Below are positions 41,236 through 46,807 of a DNA stretch of 64,000 nt, one piece after another; the stretch's first letter is position 1; the number at the start of each line of letters is the position of its first letter. Source of the stretch: Desulfuromonadales bacterium. Its GTDB lineage: Bacteria; Desulfobacterota; Desulfuromonadia; Desulfuromonadales; SZUA-540. The stretch is taken from positions 32,001-96,000 of the forward strand of contig JAWSUS010000005.1 in assembly GCA_033549025.1 (NCBI GenBank). The letters are read 5' to 3'. The notes beneath the pieces were generated by a model. That model was not told the origin of the DNA and searched no databases. It saw only the letters and a list, made by a program, of their open reading frames with translations. A program made the position numbers and the translations under genes.

Positions 41236-41986
41236 GGGCGTGAGCAAGCGCTTCGGGGGGCTGCCGGCCCTTGATGATGTCTCCTTCGGGGTCACGGCCG
41301 GACAGGTGACGGCCCTGATCGGGCCCAACGGGGCCGGCAAGAGTACTCTGATCAACGTCATCACCGGCGTGCTGCCGCCGAGCAGCGGCGCCATCGCCTT
41401 CGGCGGTCGGCCTATCGCCGGACTGCCGGCCCACGAGGTGGCCCGCCTCGGCATCGCCCGTACCTTTCAGAATCTCAAGATCTTTCCCCGGCTCTCCGTG
41501 CTCGACAACGTCCTGTGCGGTCTGACCTGCGAAGCCGGGCGTTCCCTGCTCATGGCCATGTTGCGTCTGCCCTATCTGCGCCACCGGGAACGGCGCCTGC
41601 GTCTGCGGGCTCTGGAGGCTCTTGACCGCTTCGCCCTGGCTGATAAAGCGCATTGGCCCGCCGGGGTGCTAGCCTACGGCGACAAGAAGCGGGTGGAACT
41701 GGCGCGGGCCAGCGTCAGCGAGCCGCTGCTGCTGTTGCTGGACGAACCGGTGGCCGGCCTCAATGCTGACGAGACAGCCGCCGTTGCCGAGCAGCTGCGC
41801 CGCCTGCGCCTCGCCGGCCACACCCTGTTGCTGGTGGAGCACGACATGGACCTGGTCATGGGCGTGGCCGACCAGGTGGTGGTGCTCGACAGCGGCCGCT
41901 GTATCGCGCAGGGGACACCGGCGGAGATCCGCCGCAATCCCCTCGTTCTTGAAGCCTATCTGGGGCGCATGGAGGCGACCGCCTGA
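41222..41986 (+). CDS. livG: ABC transporter ATPase
   Basis: GPNGAGKS, ARTFQ, LDEPVAG, EHDM. Confidence 0.9.
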   Translation: MLRLEGVSKRFGGLPALDDVSFGVTAGQVTALIGPNGAGKSTLINVITGVLPPSSGAIAFGGRPIAGLPAHEVARLGIARTFQNLKIFPRLSVLDNVLCGLTCEAGRSLLMAMLRLPYLRHRERRLRLRALEALDRFALADKAHWPAGVLAYGDKKRVELARASVSEPLLLLLDEPVAGLNADETAAVAEQLRRLRLAGHTLLLVEHDMDLVMGVADQVVVLDSGRCIAQGTPAEIRRNPLVLEAYLGRMEATA

Positions 41987-44076
41987 TGCTGACAGTCACC
42001 AACCTCACCGCTCATTACGGGGCCGCCCAGGCCCTCTTCGGCGTCAGCTTCGAGGTGCGTGCCGGCGAGACGGTGGCCCTGGTCGGGGCCAACGGCGCCG
42101 GCAAGAGTACCCTGCTCAAGTGTCTGATGGGACTGGTCAAGCCGACGGCCGGGAGCATCCTTCTCGATGGTCGCGATTTGACCGGCAGCGCTCCGGCCCG
42201 CATGGTCGGGCAGGGACTCGCCCTCTCGCCGGAAGGACGGGAGGTGTTCGCCCAGCTGTCGGTGCACGAAAATCTGCAGCTCGGCGCCCTGGCTCTGCGC
42301 CTGGCCAAGAAGGAGGAGTCGGCGCGCCTGGAGGAAGTCTATGAGCGCTTTCCCAAGCTCCGGCAGCGCCAGACGCAGCTGGCCGGCACCCTCTCCGGCG
42401 GTGAACAGCAGATGCTCGCCATGGGACGGGCTCTTATGGCCAAGCCGCGCCTGCTGCTCCTCGACGAGCCGAGTCTGGGGCTGGCCCCTCTCATCACCGA
42501 CGAGATCTTCGCCATCATTCATCAGCTCGGCCGGGCCGGCACCACCATACTGCTGGTGGAGCAGAACGCCGCCCGCGCCCTTTCCGCCTCCGACAGTGCC
42601 TATCTGCTGGCCAACGGCCGCATCGTCGAGCAGGGGGAAAGCTCCCGTCTTCTCACCGATCCGGCGCTCCGTTCGGCCTTTTTGGGCGCCGCCAGTCAGG
42701 ACAACCCCGCTGCCAGTCGTCTCGGCGCTGCCGGGTTGACCAATATCCGCCTGGAGAAACCCGCTATGCACCAGAAGAATTTCATGCCCGCCTTTGAAAA
42801 CGAAGCCCAGCTCAAGGATCACCAGCTCAAAGGGCTGCAGTGGACCGTGCGCCACGCCTACGAAGGATCGAGCTTTTACCGGCAGCGGCTGGATGAGGCC
42901 GGCGTCAGCCCCGACAGCATCCGCAGCTTGGACGATGTACGCCGCCTCCCCTTTACCACCGCCGACGATCTGCGCGACGGCTATCCCTTCCCCCTGCGCG
43001 CCGTGCCCTTCGAGCAGATTGTGCGCGTGCATGCCAGTTCGGGCACCACGGGCAAGCGCAAGGTGCTCTGTTATACGCAGAAGGATCTCGACGACTGGAC
43101 CGACTTCTTTGCCCGCGCCTACCAGATGGCCGGCGTCACCCCCCTCGATCGCGTGCAGATTGCCGTCGGCTATGGGGTGTGGACGGCCGGCATGGGCTTT
43201 CAGCTCGGCTGCGAAAAGATCGGCGCCCTCGCCGTGCCCGTCGGGCCGGGCAATATCGATCTGCAGATCCAGTTTCTTATCGATTTCCAGTCCACCGTCT
43301 TCTGCTCCACCGCCTCCATGGCCCTGCTGATGGCCGAAGAGATTCACAAGCGGGGGGTGGCCGACAAAATCGCCGTCCGGAAGATCATCTACGGCTCCGA
43401 GCGCTCCAGTCGCTCCATGCGTCAGAAAATCTCCGAGCTCTTTGGTGGGGCCGAACTCTTTGATATTACCGGGCTCACCGAACTCTACGGCCCCGGTACC
43501 GGCATCGAGTGCAGCGAGCACGACTGCATCCACTACTGGGGGGATTACTACCTGCTGGAGATCGTCGATCCCGACACCCTGCAACCCCTCCCTGACGGCG
43601 AGTGGGGGGAAATGGTCCTCACCAGCCTGTGCAAGGAGGCGTCGCCCCTCATCCGCTATCGCACCCGCGACATCACCCGCATTATTCCCGGTGCCTGTAC
43701 CTGCGGTTCGGTGCTCCCCCGTCATTCCCGCATCAAGGGGCGCAGCGATGACACCATCAAGTTTCGCGGCGTCAACATCTATCCGTCGAGCATCGATACC
43801 ATCCTCTCCGCCGTGCCCGGGCTCGGCTCCGAATATCAGATTCATCTGACCCGTGAAGAAGCGTCCGGGCGGGACAGCATGCGCCTGCTTATCGAGCGCG
43901 CCCAGGGGGTCGGCGCCGAGCGCAGCGCTGAACTCATCCACGAGGCCATCCACCAGATCAAGAAGCAGCTCATGGTCTCCGCCGACCTGGAGTTGGTCGA
44001 TTACGGCAGCCTGCCCCGCTCTGAGGGCAAAAGCAAACGCGTCTTTGATACGCGGATTCAGGATGAAATCGTCTGA
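41986..44076 (+). CDS. fusion of LivF ABC ATPase and phenylacetate--CoA ligase (PaaK); possible internal start at 42766
   Basis: aa 1-235 LivF (GANGAGKS, LSGGEQQM, DEPSLGLAP); aa 261-696 PaaK (HASSGTTGK, GLTELYGPG, RYRTRD, GRSDD); no stop between them. Confidence 0.85.
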   Translation: MLTVTNLTAHYGAAQALFGVSFEVRAGETVALVGANGAGKSTLLKCLMGLVKPTAGSILLDGRDLTGSAPARMVGQGLALSPEGREVFAQLSVHENLQLGALALRLAKKEESARLEEVYERFPKLRQRQTQLAGTLSGGEQQMLAMGRALMAKPRLLLLDEPSLGLAPLITDEIFAIIHQLGRAGTTILLVEQNAARALSASDSAYLLANGRIVEQGESSRLLTDPALRSAFLGAASQDNPAASRLGAAGLTNIRLEKPAMHQKNFMPAFENEAQLKDHQLKGLQWTVRHAYEGSSFYRQRLDEAGVSPDSIRSLDDVRRLPFTTADDLRDGYPFPLRAVPFEQIVRVHASSGTTGKRKVLCYTQKDLDDWTDFFARAYQMAGVTPLDRVQIAVGYGVWTAGMGFQLGCEKIGALAVPVGPGNIDLQIQFLIDFQSTVFCSTASMALLMAEEIHKRGVADKIAVRKIIYGSERSSRSMRQKISELFGGAELFDITGLTELYGPGTGIECSEHDCIHYWGDYYLLEIVDPDTLQPLPDGEWGEMVLTSLCKEASPLIRYRTRDITRIIPGACTCGSVLPRHSRIKGRSDDTIKFRGVNIYPSSIDTILSAVPGLGSEYQIHLTREEASGRDSMRLLIERAQGVGAERSAELIHEAIHQIKKQLMVSADLELVDYGSLPRSEGKSKRVFDTRIQDEIV

Positions 44077-44112: not shown

Positions 44113-45267
44113 ATGAAACGCGTGTTGGGATTTTTCAGTCTGCTGGTGCTGCTGGCCAGTCCGGCGCTGGCCGCAGAGCCGATCACCATCGGCGCTTTCT
44201 TCGATCTGTCCGGGCGGGCGTCCTTTATCGGCACCCCGACCAAGCTGGTGGCCGAAATGGTCGTCGACAAGATCAATCAGGAGGGGGGCATCAACGGCCG
44301 CCCTCTGGCGCTGGAGATCGGCGACACGGAAGCCAATCCCGCCAAGGCGGCCAATATCGCCAAAAAGTTCATCTACAAGGACAAGGTGGCGGCGATTATC
44401 GGTCCCACCCTCACCGATACGGGAATGAACGTCAAAAAGATCGCCCATGACGGCCGCGTGCCTATCGTCATGACGGTCGGCGGCGATCCGGTCATCATGG
44501 GGGGCGACAAGTTCGGCCCCTTCGACTGGATCTTCAAGTCCCCGCAGCGCTCCCGGACCGCCGTCGAACGGCTGCTCGTCTATCTGCAGGAAAAGGGCCT
44601 GACCCGCGTGGCCCTGCTGATCGCCTCCGATGGTTTCGGCAAGGACGGCGCCGGCTGGATGCACCAGCTCGCCGCCCAGTACGGTGTCGAGATCATGCTG
44701 GAAGAGTCTTTCGGCCCCCGCGACACCGATATGACCGCCCAGCTGACCCGGGCCAAGAACGCCAAGCCCCAGGCCATCATCTGCTGGACCACCGGCCCCG
44801 CCGGCGCCATCGTCGCCAAGAACAAAGCGCAACTCGGCATCGACCTGCCCCTGTTCCAGTGTCACGGCCTGCCCGACCCCAAGTACATCGAACTGGCCGG
44901 AGCCGCTGCCGAGGGGGACCGCATGCCGGCCACCAAGCTGATGGTGGTGGATGAGCTCGATGACAGCGATCCGCAGAAAGCGGTCATCCAGGAATTCATC
45001 CGCCTATACAAGGAGAAAGGCTACGACAAACAGTTCCCCATCAACACCCATTCGGGCTACGCCTGGGATGCCATCATGATCCTGGCCAATGCCATGAAGA
45101 AGGTCGGCACCGAGCCGGCAGCGCTTCGCAAAGCCATTGAAGAGACCACAGGCTATGTCGGCGTCTCCGGGATCTACAATCTGACCGCCGAGGATCATAA
45201 CGGCCTCGGCGTTGATTCCATGGTGATGGTCGAGGTCAGAGAGGGTCGCTTCGTCCTGGCTCGCTAG
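44113..45267 (+). CDS. livK: LivK-type periplasmic substrate-binding protein
   Basis: Signal peptide, GGINGR, PBP type 1 pattern, AGGAGGAGG RBS. Confidence 0.85.
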   Translation: MKRVLGFFSLLVLLASPALAAEPITIGAFFDLSGRASFIGTPTKLVAEMVVDKINQEGGINGRPLALEIGDTEANPAKAANIAKKFIYKDKVAAIIGPTLTDTGMNVKKIAHDGRVPIVMTVGGDPVIMGGDKFGPFDWIFKSPQRSRTAVERLLVYLQEKGLTRVALLIASDGFGKDGAGWMHQLAAQYGVEIMLEESFGPRDTDMTAQLTRAKNAKPQAIICWTTGPAGAIVAKNKAQLGIDLPLFQCHGLPDPKYIELAGAAAEGDRMPATKLMVVDELDDSDPQKAVIQEFIRLYKEKGYDKQFPINTHSGYAWDAIMILANAMKKVGTEPAALRKAIEETTGYVGVSGIYNLTAEDHNGLGVDSMVMVEVREGRFVLAR

Positions 45268-45293
45268 ACTGGCTCTCGTTTCAGCTCTTCAGC

Positions 45294-45328
45294 CGGCCCC
45301 GGTCTTTTCGTCCGGGGCCGTATTTTTT
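45294..45328 (+). terminator. terminator of the liv/ior/paaK operon
   Basis: CGGCCCCGG..CCGGGGCCG-TATTTTTT. Confidence 0.8.
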
Positions 45329-45342
45329 GGAGGGGATAAAAT

Positions 45343-45428
45343 AAAAAAGGCGCACCGGCCAGGAGAGAGGCCGATGCGCAAAAGGAAGGAGGGTTGTGTC
45401 GATTGGCCAAGTGTGAACCTGACCAATT
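45343..45428 (-). ncRNA. candidate small regulatory RNA (~86 nt) with anti-SD tracts
   Basis: Own promoter, 10-bp 5' hairpin, CCCUCCUUCCUUUU linker, 11-bp terminator stem plus U6, no ORF. Confidence 0.65.
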
Positions 45429-45434
45429 GGGTAA

Positions 45435-45463
45435 ACAATACCAAGACGATAGGAAAAGGTCAA
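45435..45463 (-). promoter_or_regulatory. sigma70 promoter of the candidate sRNA
   Basis: TTGACC-N17-TATTGT on the minus strand. Confidence 0.65.
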
Positions 45464-45539
45464 TACAAAATTCAGTTTTTTGGTGGGAAAATTTATGCAC
45501 CGGTAGACCGGGGGGGTTGTAGCCTGCGCGTTTACGGGG

Positions 45540-45568
45540 TTGCAGGGGGTGGGGTTTAACGGTAGAAT
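45540..45568 (+). promoter_or_regulatory. sigma70 promoter of serB
   Basis: TTGCAG-N17-TAGAAT. Confidence 0.55.
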
Positions 45569-45610
45569 ACCGGCGTTTTTCAGGACAGATGAAAGGGGTT
45601 GTTTATCATT

Positions 45611-46807
45611 ATGGATCGTAAGATGGTTCTTGTTACCATGACCGGGCCGGACAAGCCGGGCATCGTCGCCGCAGTGACCGGCAATATCGCCGCCGCCGGG
45701 GCGCGCATCCGCGACATCGAGCAGACGGTGACCCATACGCTGCTTTCCTTTTCGGTGCTCATCGATTTTCCCACGGGCGAGAGCGACCAGAAACCCCTGA
45801 TCAAGGATCTCCTTTTCCTGGCCAAGGAGCTTGGGCAGGATCTCGATTTCCAGGTGCTGTCCGAATCGGAGTACCGGCGTAAAACGACCAAGCACGCCTA
45901 TGTGGTGACCATTCTGGGTGGTGAGGTGAGCGCTACCTCGCTGGCGCGGGTGTCGCGCATCCTGGCCGACAACCGGGTCAATATCGAGCGTATCTCCAAG
46001 CTGACGCAGGGACAGCTGCGCTGCGTCGAGTTTCTCATCACCACGCCGCCGGAGCTGGATGTCAAGGCCATGACCCGCAAGCTGCTGCGCGTCGGCGCCA
46101 GCCTCGGCGTCGACATCGCCATGCAGAAGGAGAGCCTCTACCGCCGGGCCAAGCGCCTGGTGGTGATGGACATGGATTCCACTCTCATCCAGATCGAGGT
46201 CATCGACGAGTTGGCCCGCCTGGCCGGAGTCGGGGAGCAGGTGGCGGATATCACCCTGCGAGCCATGAACGGCGAACTTGACTTTCAGGGGGCGCTGCGG
46301 GAGCGGGTGGCCCTACTGCAGGGGCTGTCGGTCGACGCGCTTGAGGAGGTCTACCGCCATATCCCCTTCACGCCCGGGGCCAAGAACCTGGTGCGCATTC
46401 TCAAGCGGCTCGGCTTCCGCACGGCAGTCATCTCGGGTGGCTTCAAGTTTTTCACCGATCGCCTCAAGACCGAACTGGGCCTGGATTACGCCTACGCCAA
46501 CGACCTGGAGATCGCCGACGGCAAGGTGACCGGTGCGGTCAAGGGGGAGATCGTCGACGGGGCCCGCAAGGCCCAGTTGTTGGAGGAAATTGCCTGTCAG
46601 GAAGGGATTACCCTCGACCAGGTGGTGGCCATCGGCGACGGCGCCAACGATCTGCCCATGCTGGGCAAGGCCGGGCTGGGTATCGCTTTCAACGCCAAGG
46701 CCCGGGTGCGGGAGCAGGCCGATTACCATATCAACCAGCAGAGTCTCGACTCCATTCTCTATCTGCTCGGCTTCTCCGAGCGGGAGATGGCCGAGATCGA
46801 CCAATGA
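45611..46807 (+). CDS. serB: phosphoserine phosphatase with ACT domains
   Basis: GPDKPGI ACT, DMDSTL, SGGF, GDGAND. Confidence 0.95.
   Translation: MDRKMVLVTMTGPDKPGIVAAVTGNIAAAGARIRDIEQTVTHTLLSFSVLIDFPTGESDQKPLIKDLLFLAKELGQDLDFQVLSESEYRRKTTKHAYVVTILGGEVSATSLARVSRILADNRVNIERISKLTQGQLRCVEFLITTPPELDVKAMTRKLLRVGASLGVDIAMQKESLYRRAKRLVVMDMDSTLIQIEVIDELARLAGVGEQVADITLRAMNGELDFQGALRERVALLQGLSVDALEEVYRHIPFTPGAKNLVRILKRLGFRTAVISGGFKFFTDRLKTELGLDYAYANDLEIADGKVTGAVKGEIVDGARKAQLLEEIACQEGITLDQVVAIGDGANDLPMLGKAGLGIAFNAKARVREQADYHINQQSLDSILYLLGFSEREMAEIDQ

Follow-up and report, generated by a model that had tools for sequence, protein, structure and literature searches.

An 86-nt element on the minus strand of the analyzed window, a 64,000-nt stretch of DNA from a Desulfuromonadales bacterium, is in all likelihood a genuine RNA gene, as its anatomy, conservation and covariation argue. 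It is very probable that this gene encodes a new trans-acting anti-Shine-Dalgarno (anti-SD) small RNA, one for which we found no description in print within the literature searched. Taken as a whole, the explanation that we favor and regard as likely is that of an independently transcribed, trans-acting anti-SD RNA, one sibling of a large family in metal and sulfur reducers and one that would occlude ribosome-binding sites (RBSs). Throughout, G000 denotes the genome that contains the window, G001, G002 and G003 its genus relatives, C-numbers contigs and L-numbers loci.

Anatomy and fold of the predicted RNA

The promoter and the predicted RNA comprise the following features.

45435..45463, minus strand: sigma-70-type promoter with -35 TTGACC, 17 nt and an extended -10 TG-N-TATTGT (sequence and conservation)
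45343..45428, minus strand: predicted small RNA, 86 nt (fold, conservation)
45402..45427, minus strand: 5' hairpin, 11 bp, G-U pairs included (fold)
45380..45401, minus strand: single-stranded C/U linker, 22 nt, first candidate seed (fold, conservation)
45343..45379, minus strand: intrinsic terminator hairpin with GCGC stem and U tail, a module common to the whole family (fold, covariation)
45361..45368, minus strand: terminator loop UCUCUCCU, second candidate seed (exact complement of AGGAGAGA)

A preliminary description of this DNA had placed a TTGACC-N17-TATTGT promoter on the minus strand, and we located it there, with the -35 hexamer at 45463-45458, a 17-nt spacer and TATTGT at 45440-45435; in addition, an extended TG precedes the -10 box. 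Transcription would start at 45428. The first hairpin, previously given as 10 bp, occupies the place assigned to it and has 11 pairs in our fold (45427-45417 with 45412-45402). The tract described as single-stranded and C/U-rich corresponds to the 22-nt linker, for which computed accessibility gives an unpaired probability above 0.9, and the proposed terminator corresponds to an 11-bp stem (45379-45350) that encloses an 8-nt loop and is followed by C-U6 down to 45343.

The minus strand (86-89 nt) folds at -37.1 kcal/mol (z -7.3), which none of 200 shuffles equals, and the plus strand of the same stretch gives a weaker fold (z -3.0). The combination of promoter and CTCCT occurs once in the window versus 0.03 times expected, the pattern having been drawn after the site was seen. 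The sequence features broadly expected of an Hfq-type sRNA are present (own promoter, U-tailed intrinsic terminator, no conserved ORF), and hfq is encoded in the same genome (PF17209, 83 bits). The Rfam search that had been suggested as a check matched no family in the window at the gathering cut-off, gave only sub-threshold noise and no credible match around the locus at E up to 10, and matched none of 20 family and look-alike loci on the RNA; a 15-bit suhB match near the locus falls on the opposite strand, at the operon terminator, and not on the RNA.

The unit is conserved in the genus independently of the convergent operon

The RNA lies between a convergent operon and the divergent serB gene, with these neighboring features.

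44113..45267, plus strand: livK-like periplasmic binding protein gene, last gene of the convergent operon (Pfam Peripla_BP_6)
45294..45328, plus strand: terminator of the liv/ior/paaK operon, lying outside the RNA (fold; absent beside the RNA in G002 and G003)
45540..45568, plus strand: serB promoter-like TTGCAG-17-TAGAAT (read from the sequence; missed by the consensus scan)
45611..46807, plus strand: serB, phosphoserine phosphatase, the divergent neighbor in all four genus genomes (TIGR00338)

A DNA search of 40 relatives recovered the entire unit in all three genus relatives, always divergent from serB, so that the conservation upstream of this gene, which had been proposed as a check, is indeed found. 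The segment from -35 to -10 is 83-86% identical in the three, and identity in the 26 nt upstream of the promoter drops to 50% in the most distant relative. The 13 nt at the 3' end of the linker are invariant (identity 1.0) across the four genomes. In G003, three pairs of the terminator stem are changed and the stem is still fully paired. The 5' hairpin persists in G001 and G002, showing loop or G-U changes there, and is reduced to 7 bp in G003, to which its identity is 56%; it shows no significant covariation, four sequences being too few for that. Sequence similar to 45540-45568 also occurs upstream of serB in relatives. Near serB in nine genomes of other genera, we obtained no model match. 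In genome G028 (L273), a different promoter-hairpin-terminator unit is divergent from serB and precedes the gene of a periplasmic binding protein; this unit could represent a riboswitch or a further small RNA.

The link to the liv/ior/paaK operon made in the preliminary description holds for the window, where the operon adjoins the RNA and ends at a separate terminator of its own on the plus strand (about 45294-45328), as had been noted. The operon follows the RNA in G000 and G001, two of the four genus genomes, and the adjacency is incidental, since only one of the three relatives has it. Within the operon, the transporter genes are interleaved with iorAB, and positions 41986-44076 hold a single 696-aa ORF in which a LivF-type ATPase is joined to a phenylacetate-CoA ligase.

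The terminator module belongs to a multicopy family of the Desulfuromonadales

Weak matches in other genera covered the terminator only. R1, a covariance model that spans linker and terminator and was derived from 13 copies, matches 110 of 141 genomes of the order, G000 included (E <=0.01), with up to seven matches per genome and tandem arrays spaced by ~218 nt among them. R2, a broader model of 67 copies, matches two of 101 sister-order genomes and one of 140 other genomes of the phylum, all weakly; therefore, the module is no generic terminator. A pattern scan of all species genomes returned 64 loci, 37 of them labelled Desulfuromonadales or its genera; the other 27 comprise eight labelled delta-proteobacteria or the phylum and 19 with other labels, four of which score above 40 bits with R2. 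Viral contigs gave no pattern matches. One near-identical terminator module, with a sigma-70-like promoter and no Rfam match, lies in Paraburkholderia (L131:1477-1537, 41.7 bits), where it would reflect convergence or transfer.

In an alignment of 61 distinct copies that was fitted to the model, both sides change in eight of the nine stem pairs, which none of 500 shuffles reaches. The loop core CUCC stays constant while the stem pairs covary; the family consensus loop is CCCUCCU, from which the loop of the window RNA, CUCUCCU, differs by one change. Siblings vary in the open linker and the loop flanks, and three kinds of promoter motif are exchanged between them. We take these to be sigma-70-like, often with an ATGACC-N5-GGTAAT palindrome; of a TTTACG-N6-CACGTGG type; and sigma-54-like (TGGCAC-N5-TTGC). 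Of 95 neighbor rows, 55 have a convergent next gene and 40 a co-directional one, with no downstream-gene bias; 97 rows were examined, two had no called gene, and they are not independent, with paralogs, close kin and four atoC-model matches included.

In G000, siblings lie on C13, C16, C8 and probably C17, in addition to a three-copy array on C2. The C2 array (G000:C2:277800-278600, L173), missed by both models, consists of three tandem units ~240 nt apart that have a CACGTGG-type promoter, a common 5' hairpin and the terminator loop GCCUCCCCC; the gene after it is presumably of the HNH/RRXRR type, judging by motif. Sigma-54-like promoters precede the siblings at G000:C16:56050-56116 and C8:112326-112389 and those at L073 and L074, and this branch may be class-wide, because the two weak sister-order matches bear the same promoter type. 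In the tandem arrays L053-L056, the loop UCACCUCCU equals the 16S rRNA 3' tail of G000 (C18).

One sibling class has in its promoters a palindrome, AT(G/T)ACC-N5-GGT(A/C)AT (L058, L063, L064, L085, L121, L126, L137; G000:C15:44916, C2:270690, C12:9874), that often lies just upstream of rubrerythrin. In G000 it also precedes what, from the N-termini, we take to be a cytochrome bd-like operon, a hemerythrin-like gene and a small rubredoxin-like ORF. The palindrome is possibly an oxygen-stress repressor site. We do not claim an operator over the start site of the window RNA (TTACC-N5-GGTCA): the sequence fits the palindrome core, but in the genome it falls outside the best 45 sites, and G003 has lost half of it.

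The literature searched, outside which lay Additional file 1 of PMC2864571 and one G. sulfurreducens transcriptome study (2010), yielded no description of the family, and the six files of the Pelobacter carbinolicus multicopy-sequence supplement (PMC3543383) contain neither CCCTCCTG nor CCTCCTGA. The family is order-wide, lacks a dedicated Rfam model and resembles atoC in its design. Together, the conservation of promoter, linker and terminator, the independence from neighboring genes and the covarying multicopy family support the central proposal of the preliminary description, a stand-alone trans-acting RNA with an exposed anti-SD sequence.

Predicted targets of the linker

Genes (2889) were called with a custom script, the starts depending on a caller that scores SD matches, and duplexes were scored with accessibility for 2877 of them. 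The linker ranked first with a succinyl-CoA:acetate CoA-transferase gene that lies in another part of the genome, over whose SD and AUG it forms a 20-nt duplex (-23.8 kcal/mol). This gene heads an operon that also encodes acyl-CoA dehydrogenases and a fusion of the methylmalonyl-CoA-mutase type. Both G001 and G002 retain the site, and changes in the RNA there keep the pairing as G-U, and the altered linker of G003 still pairs with it (-22.9); the CoA-transferase ortholog was not found in the G003 assembly, which is 78% complete. The energy of this duplex alone is unremarkable: five of 44 CCUCC-keeping shuffles reach the best linker energy, and a CoA-transferase paralog is the top match in two of the 44. 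Linker matches in the 22-gene CoA-transferase operon give p 1e-4 versus all genes with SD strength uncontrolled, and we did not count this as evidence.

The targets named earlier did not stand out among the 2877 genes: livK ranked 702 or 206 with the linker and 768 with the loop, actP 294 or 82 and 988, and DUF4212 131 and 818. The adjacent serB was rejected as a target as well (rank 409-471). One TrkA-family gene, whose open RBS is extremely rich in G (G000:C22:38732-39391), draws most shuffled anti-SD queries and is a standing false positive of target prediction.

The terminator loop matches a tag at the RBSs of TCA genes

The loop UCUCUCCU is the exact complement of AGGAGAGA because one base differs from the family consensus. 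AGGAGAGA is present at the RBS of 31 called genes and of mdh, whose start we corrected by hand (32 of 2889). These include gltA, acnB, icd, mdh, the class I and class II-type fumarases and a second CoA-transferase, that is, seven of 17 TCA cistrons (p ~1e-7 among AGGAG genes, the TCA set having been chosen after the matches were known). The kor, suc and frd genes in this set are assumed to be such from motifs and position. Apart from an overlapping word, AGGAGAGA is the sole enriched one of 64 AGGAGNNN words; it occurs in one of 36 genes of the ribosomal-protein cluster, and the family-consensus loop fits the TCA sites clearly worse. Six more genes with AGGAGAGA belong to peroxide defense (three of the rubrerythrin family, a peroxiredoxin, a thioredoxin-reductase-like protein and a cytochrome c peroxidase).

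Within the order, AGGAGAGA is found at 19 of 23 gltA, 19 of 21 icd and 19 of 20 mdh loci, kin that are not independent, and in the sister order at none of seven, three of six and none of five, respectively. Its flanks and spacing vary, as they would for a seed site. In a search for an order-wide RNA with the exact UCUCUCCU loop, 31 genomes and, by a looser pattern, 10 gave none, bar a sigma-54-type sibling in G026, the sole one located outside the genus. Since AGGAGAGA is conserved beyond the genus, where no other exact-loop RNA was found, another reader, or none, may keep it: outside the genus it may be read by one-mismatch-loop siblings, by an unseen RNA or by a protein, or may just be a favored RBS. 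Moreover, the match of loop and tag may be the chance of a single loop change (about 1 in 9-10 over three variable positions), and eight pairs may not fit into a loop of only 8 nt.

As a reader of AGGAGAGA, a 3' fragment of tRNA-Leu(GAG) was rejected, the T-arm variant being present in only three genus genomes of 24 with a match. In G000, the T-stem of this tRNA (C6:29145-29231) is specific to the genus and contains TCTCTCCT. The small contig C72 carries another, different tRNA-Leu(GAG), which, together with differing 16S ends, hints at contamination in the assembly.

Alternative explanations

We consider it unlikely that the RNA, while real, serves to bind a protein as decoy or scaffold through its conserved GCGCG stem and C/U loop, with AGGAGAGA read by something else. 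Throughout the order, the stem sequence varies unusually little, the tag persists where an exact-match RNA was not found, and the best duplex energy is not exceptional, all of which would suit such a role. However, it is exactly in the open linker and in the flanks of the loop that siblings differ, the behavior of pairing seeds. Sponges of the CsrB/RsmY type carry several GGA motifs in loops; csrA is present, but the 86-nt RNA contains no GGA, and we rejected this variant.

There is only a small chance that the locus is a conserved terminator or a silent remnant from which no stable RNA is made. The region is present in four metatranscriptome runs (X1-X4, three studies) as unstranded contigs of depth 2-9; this depth is flat and low, with no difference between genes, RNA and promoter, a profile that DNA carry-over would give, and the contigs yield no expression evidence. 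The poorly conserved 5' hairpin of G003, without significant covariation in the four sequences, would also fit a remnant. Against this, no upstream gene ends on the minus strand (serB is divergent), the promoter is conserved, the operon has its separate terminator, and the loop sequence is conserved order-wide.

It is very improbable that the RNA acts in cis on the fatty-acid CoA ligase gene downstream, as its leader or attenuator, the role proposed for atoC. This gene directly follows the RNA on the same strand in G002 (272 nt) and G003 (112 nt), and atoC, rated probably cis-regulatory (PMC2864571), is followed by a gene on its own strand in 28 of 30 loci of the sister order. In G000 and G001, however, the ligase gene lies 8.5 kb further on, beyond the opposite-strand operon, and the RNA is still 96-100% identical. 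The predicted structure has no antiterminator fold, and in the family the majority of convergent rows (55/95) and the tandem arrays also speak against a leader.

Least credible of all is a type I antitoxin whose loop covers the SD of a small opposite-strand ORF: the locus had been described as free of ORFs, and a 61-codon ORF with AGGAG ahead of its ATG at 45374 does exist there, in a family with tandem copies, but it is not conserved, since it measures 61, 88, 10 and 36 codons in the four genus genomes, a start codon is present there in only 12 of 65 family copies, with unrelated peptides, and a consensus scan found no plus-strand promoter.

A tentative model for a probable anti-SD small RNA in acetate oxidation

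The RNA probably acts by pairing to RBSs. In the mechanism that we propose, its own promoter would yield an RNA of ~86 nt, with the terminator hairpin and C/U anti-SD loop that are common to the Desulfuromonadales siblings, while promoter and 5' part differ between them. The linker and the terminator loop would pair with the RBSs of distant mRNAs, probably helped by Hfq, and this pairing would block the initiation of translation.

Its main targets, which we name tentatively from the modeled pairings, could be the acetate-oxidizing TCA enzymes, namely citrate synthase, aconitase B, isocitrate and malate dehydrogenase and the fumarases through the loop, and succinyl-CoA:acetate CoA-transferase through the linker; the RNA may then switch down acetate oxidation. 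A broader picture is speculative and, in our view, rather doubtful: the Desulfuromonadales would possess an undescribed post-transcriptional system of sibling sRNAs, in which one anti-SD terminator module, common to all, would be combined with interchangeable promoters and with seeds that read short RBS tags. AGGAGAGA would be the tag of TCA and peroxide-defense genes, the window RNA its reader in the genus and a counterpart of the repressor HgtR, and atoC the oldest sibling and not a cis element.

The literature searched contains no characterized base-pairing small RNA for these electrogenic, acetate-oxidizing bacteria. What is gained here is a defined family, with one to seven model matches in most genomes of the order, and two precise predicted pairings that can be mutated. 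If the TCA link is true, acetate oxidation, the process that determines current output and metal reduction, would be controlled at translation by an RNA that reads an 8-base tag; either way, the order-wide conservation of AGGAGAGA at gltA, icd and mdh needs an explanation. The results also question the cis-regulatory status of the Rfam atoC motif.

Comparison with known systems

The preliminary description had named AbcR and cuckoo RNAs as analogues. By its sequence, the window RNA is a member of neither, nor of atoC, a motif from the same class of bacteria that is the nearest one described and had gone unnamed. The atoC motif (RF01733) comprises eight sequences (Weinberg et al. 2010, PMC2864571). 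It resembles the window RNA in having a -10 box, a short 5' hairpin and a U-tailed terminator hairpin in the same order. The atoC terminator loop is CCCUCCU, as in most siblings, versus CUCUCCU in the window RNA; atoC has a GCCCUAG stem (GCCCU(A/G)G) and UUGCGAG before hairpin 1, whereas the window RNA has a GCGCAUC stem, lacks UUGCGAG and, unlike atoC, carries a long open linker. With a gathering cut-off of 50 bits, the atoC model gave no match at E up to 10 over window positions 45200-45700 and, across the genome, matched other sites only; it matches other members of the family weakly.

G000 has a separate, true atoC (52.1 bits; C9:9782-9873, L143), which has its own promoter and stands back-to-back with a SAM riboswitch; the gene tail-to-tail with it is presumably of the Rrf2 type. 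The model matches 80 of 121 genomes of the class, including 56 of 60 in the sister order. The atoC loci are mostly single-copy, and the homologs in G000 and G027 face convergent genes. An absence of orientation bias is not supported, the next gene being on the same strand in 28 of the 30 sister-order loci; yet 26 of 30 have their own promoter motif, and therefore the cis reading is questioned, not refuted.

Cuckoo (alpha-r14) RNAs of the Alphaproteobacteria have two to four adjacent hairpins, each with CCUCCUCCC, according to PMC4615179. Like these RNAs (CcsR, NfeR1), the window RNA belongs to a multicopy family with tandem paralogs, a C/U anti-SD motif in loops and a proposed RBS pairing. Unlike them, it has a single motif-bearing hairpin, the terminator, lacks CCUCCUCCC, has no Rfam match and comes from a host that is not alphaproteobacterial. 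AbcR1/2 (alpha-r15) represses ABC-transporter mRNAs through anti-SD seeds, and MmgR/SuhB (alpha-r8) are short Hfq-type RNAs with an exposed anti-SD sequence that retune metabolism. AbcR, treated in PMC8844928, is likewise such an RNA. The window RNA differs from both in having no Rfam match on its strand, in belonging to another phylum and in its predicted targets, which are TCA enzymes and not ABC transporters.

The myxobacterial Pxr is likewise a deltaproteobacterial small RNA with paralogs, and its conserved 8-bp terminal stem is needed for accumulation (PMC5684412). It differs in having three stem-loops, a sigma-54 promoter and a host without hfq, and the window RNA has no Pxr match in Rfam. 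Predicted CsrB-like RNAs (PMC11934962) differ from the window RNA in anatomy.

There is a functional likeness to HgtR, whose regulon in Geobacter includes gltA, acnB, icd, ato, fumA and nuoA (PMC2817479) and is nearly the predicted target set of the window RNA. The promoter of the RNA has no conserved HgtR-like site. In G000, HgtR-like GTATAC-A-GTAT sites lie before icd, gltA, nuoA, the second CoA-transferase, ATP synthase genes and a GntR-looking gene (C1:314652, C3:22180, C7:66194, C32:2876, C11:10433, C11:2168, C2:112132, C4:154985), and from these sites the Geobacter regulon seems to be conserved there. Co-regulation of the TCA set is established biology; HgtR exerts it as a DNA-binding repressor, and the window RNA would add a post-transcriptional layer.
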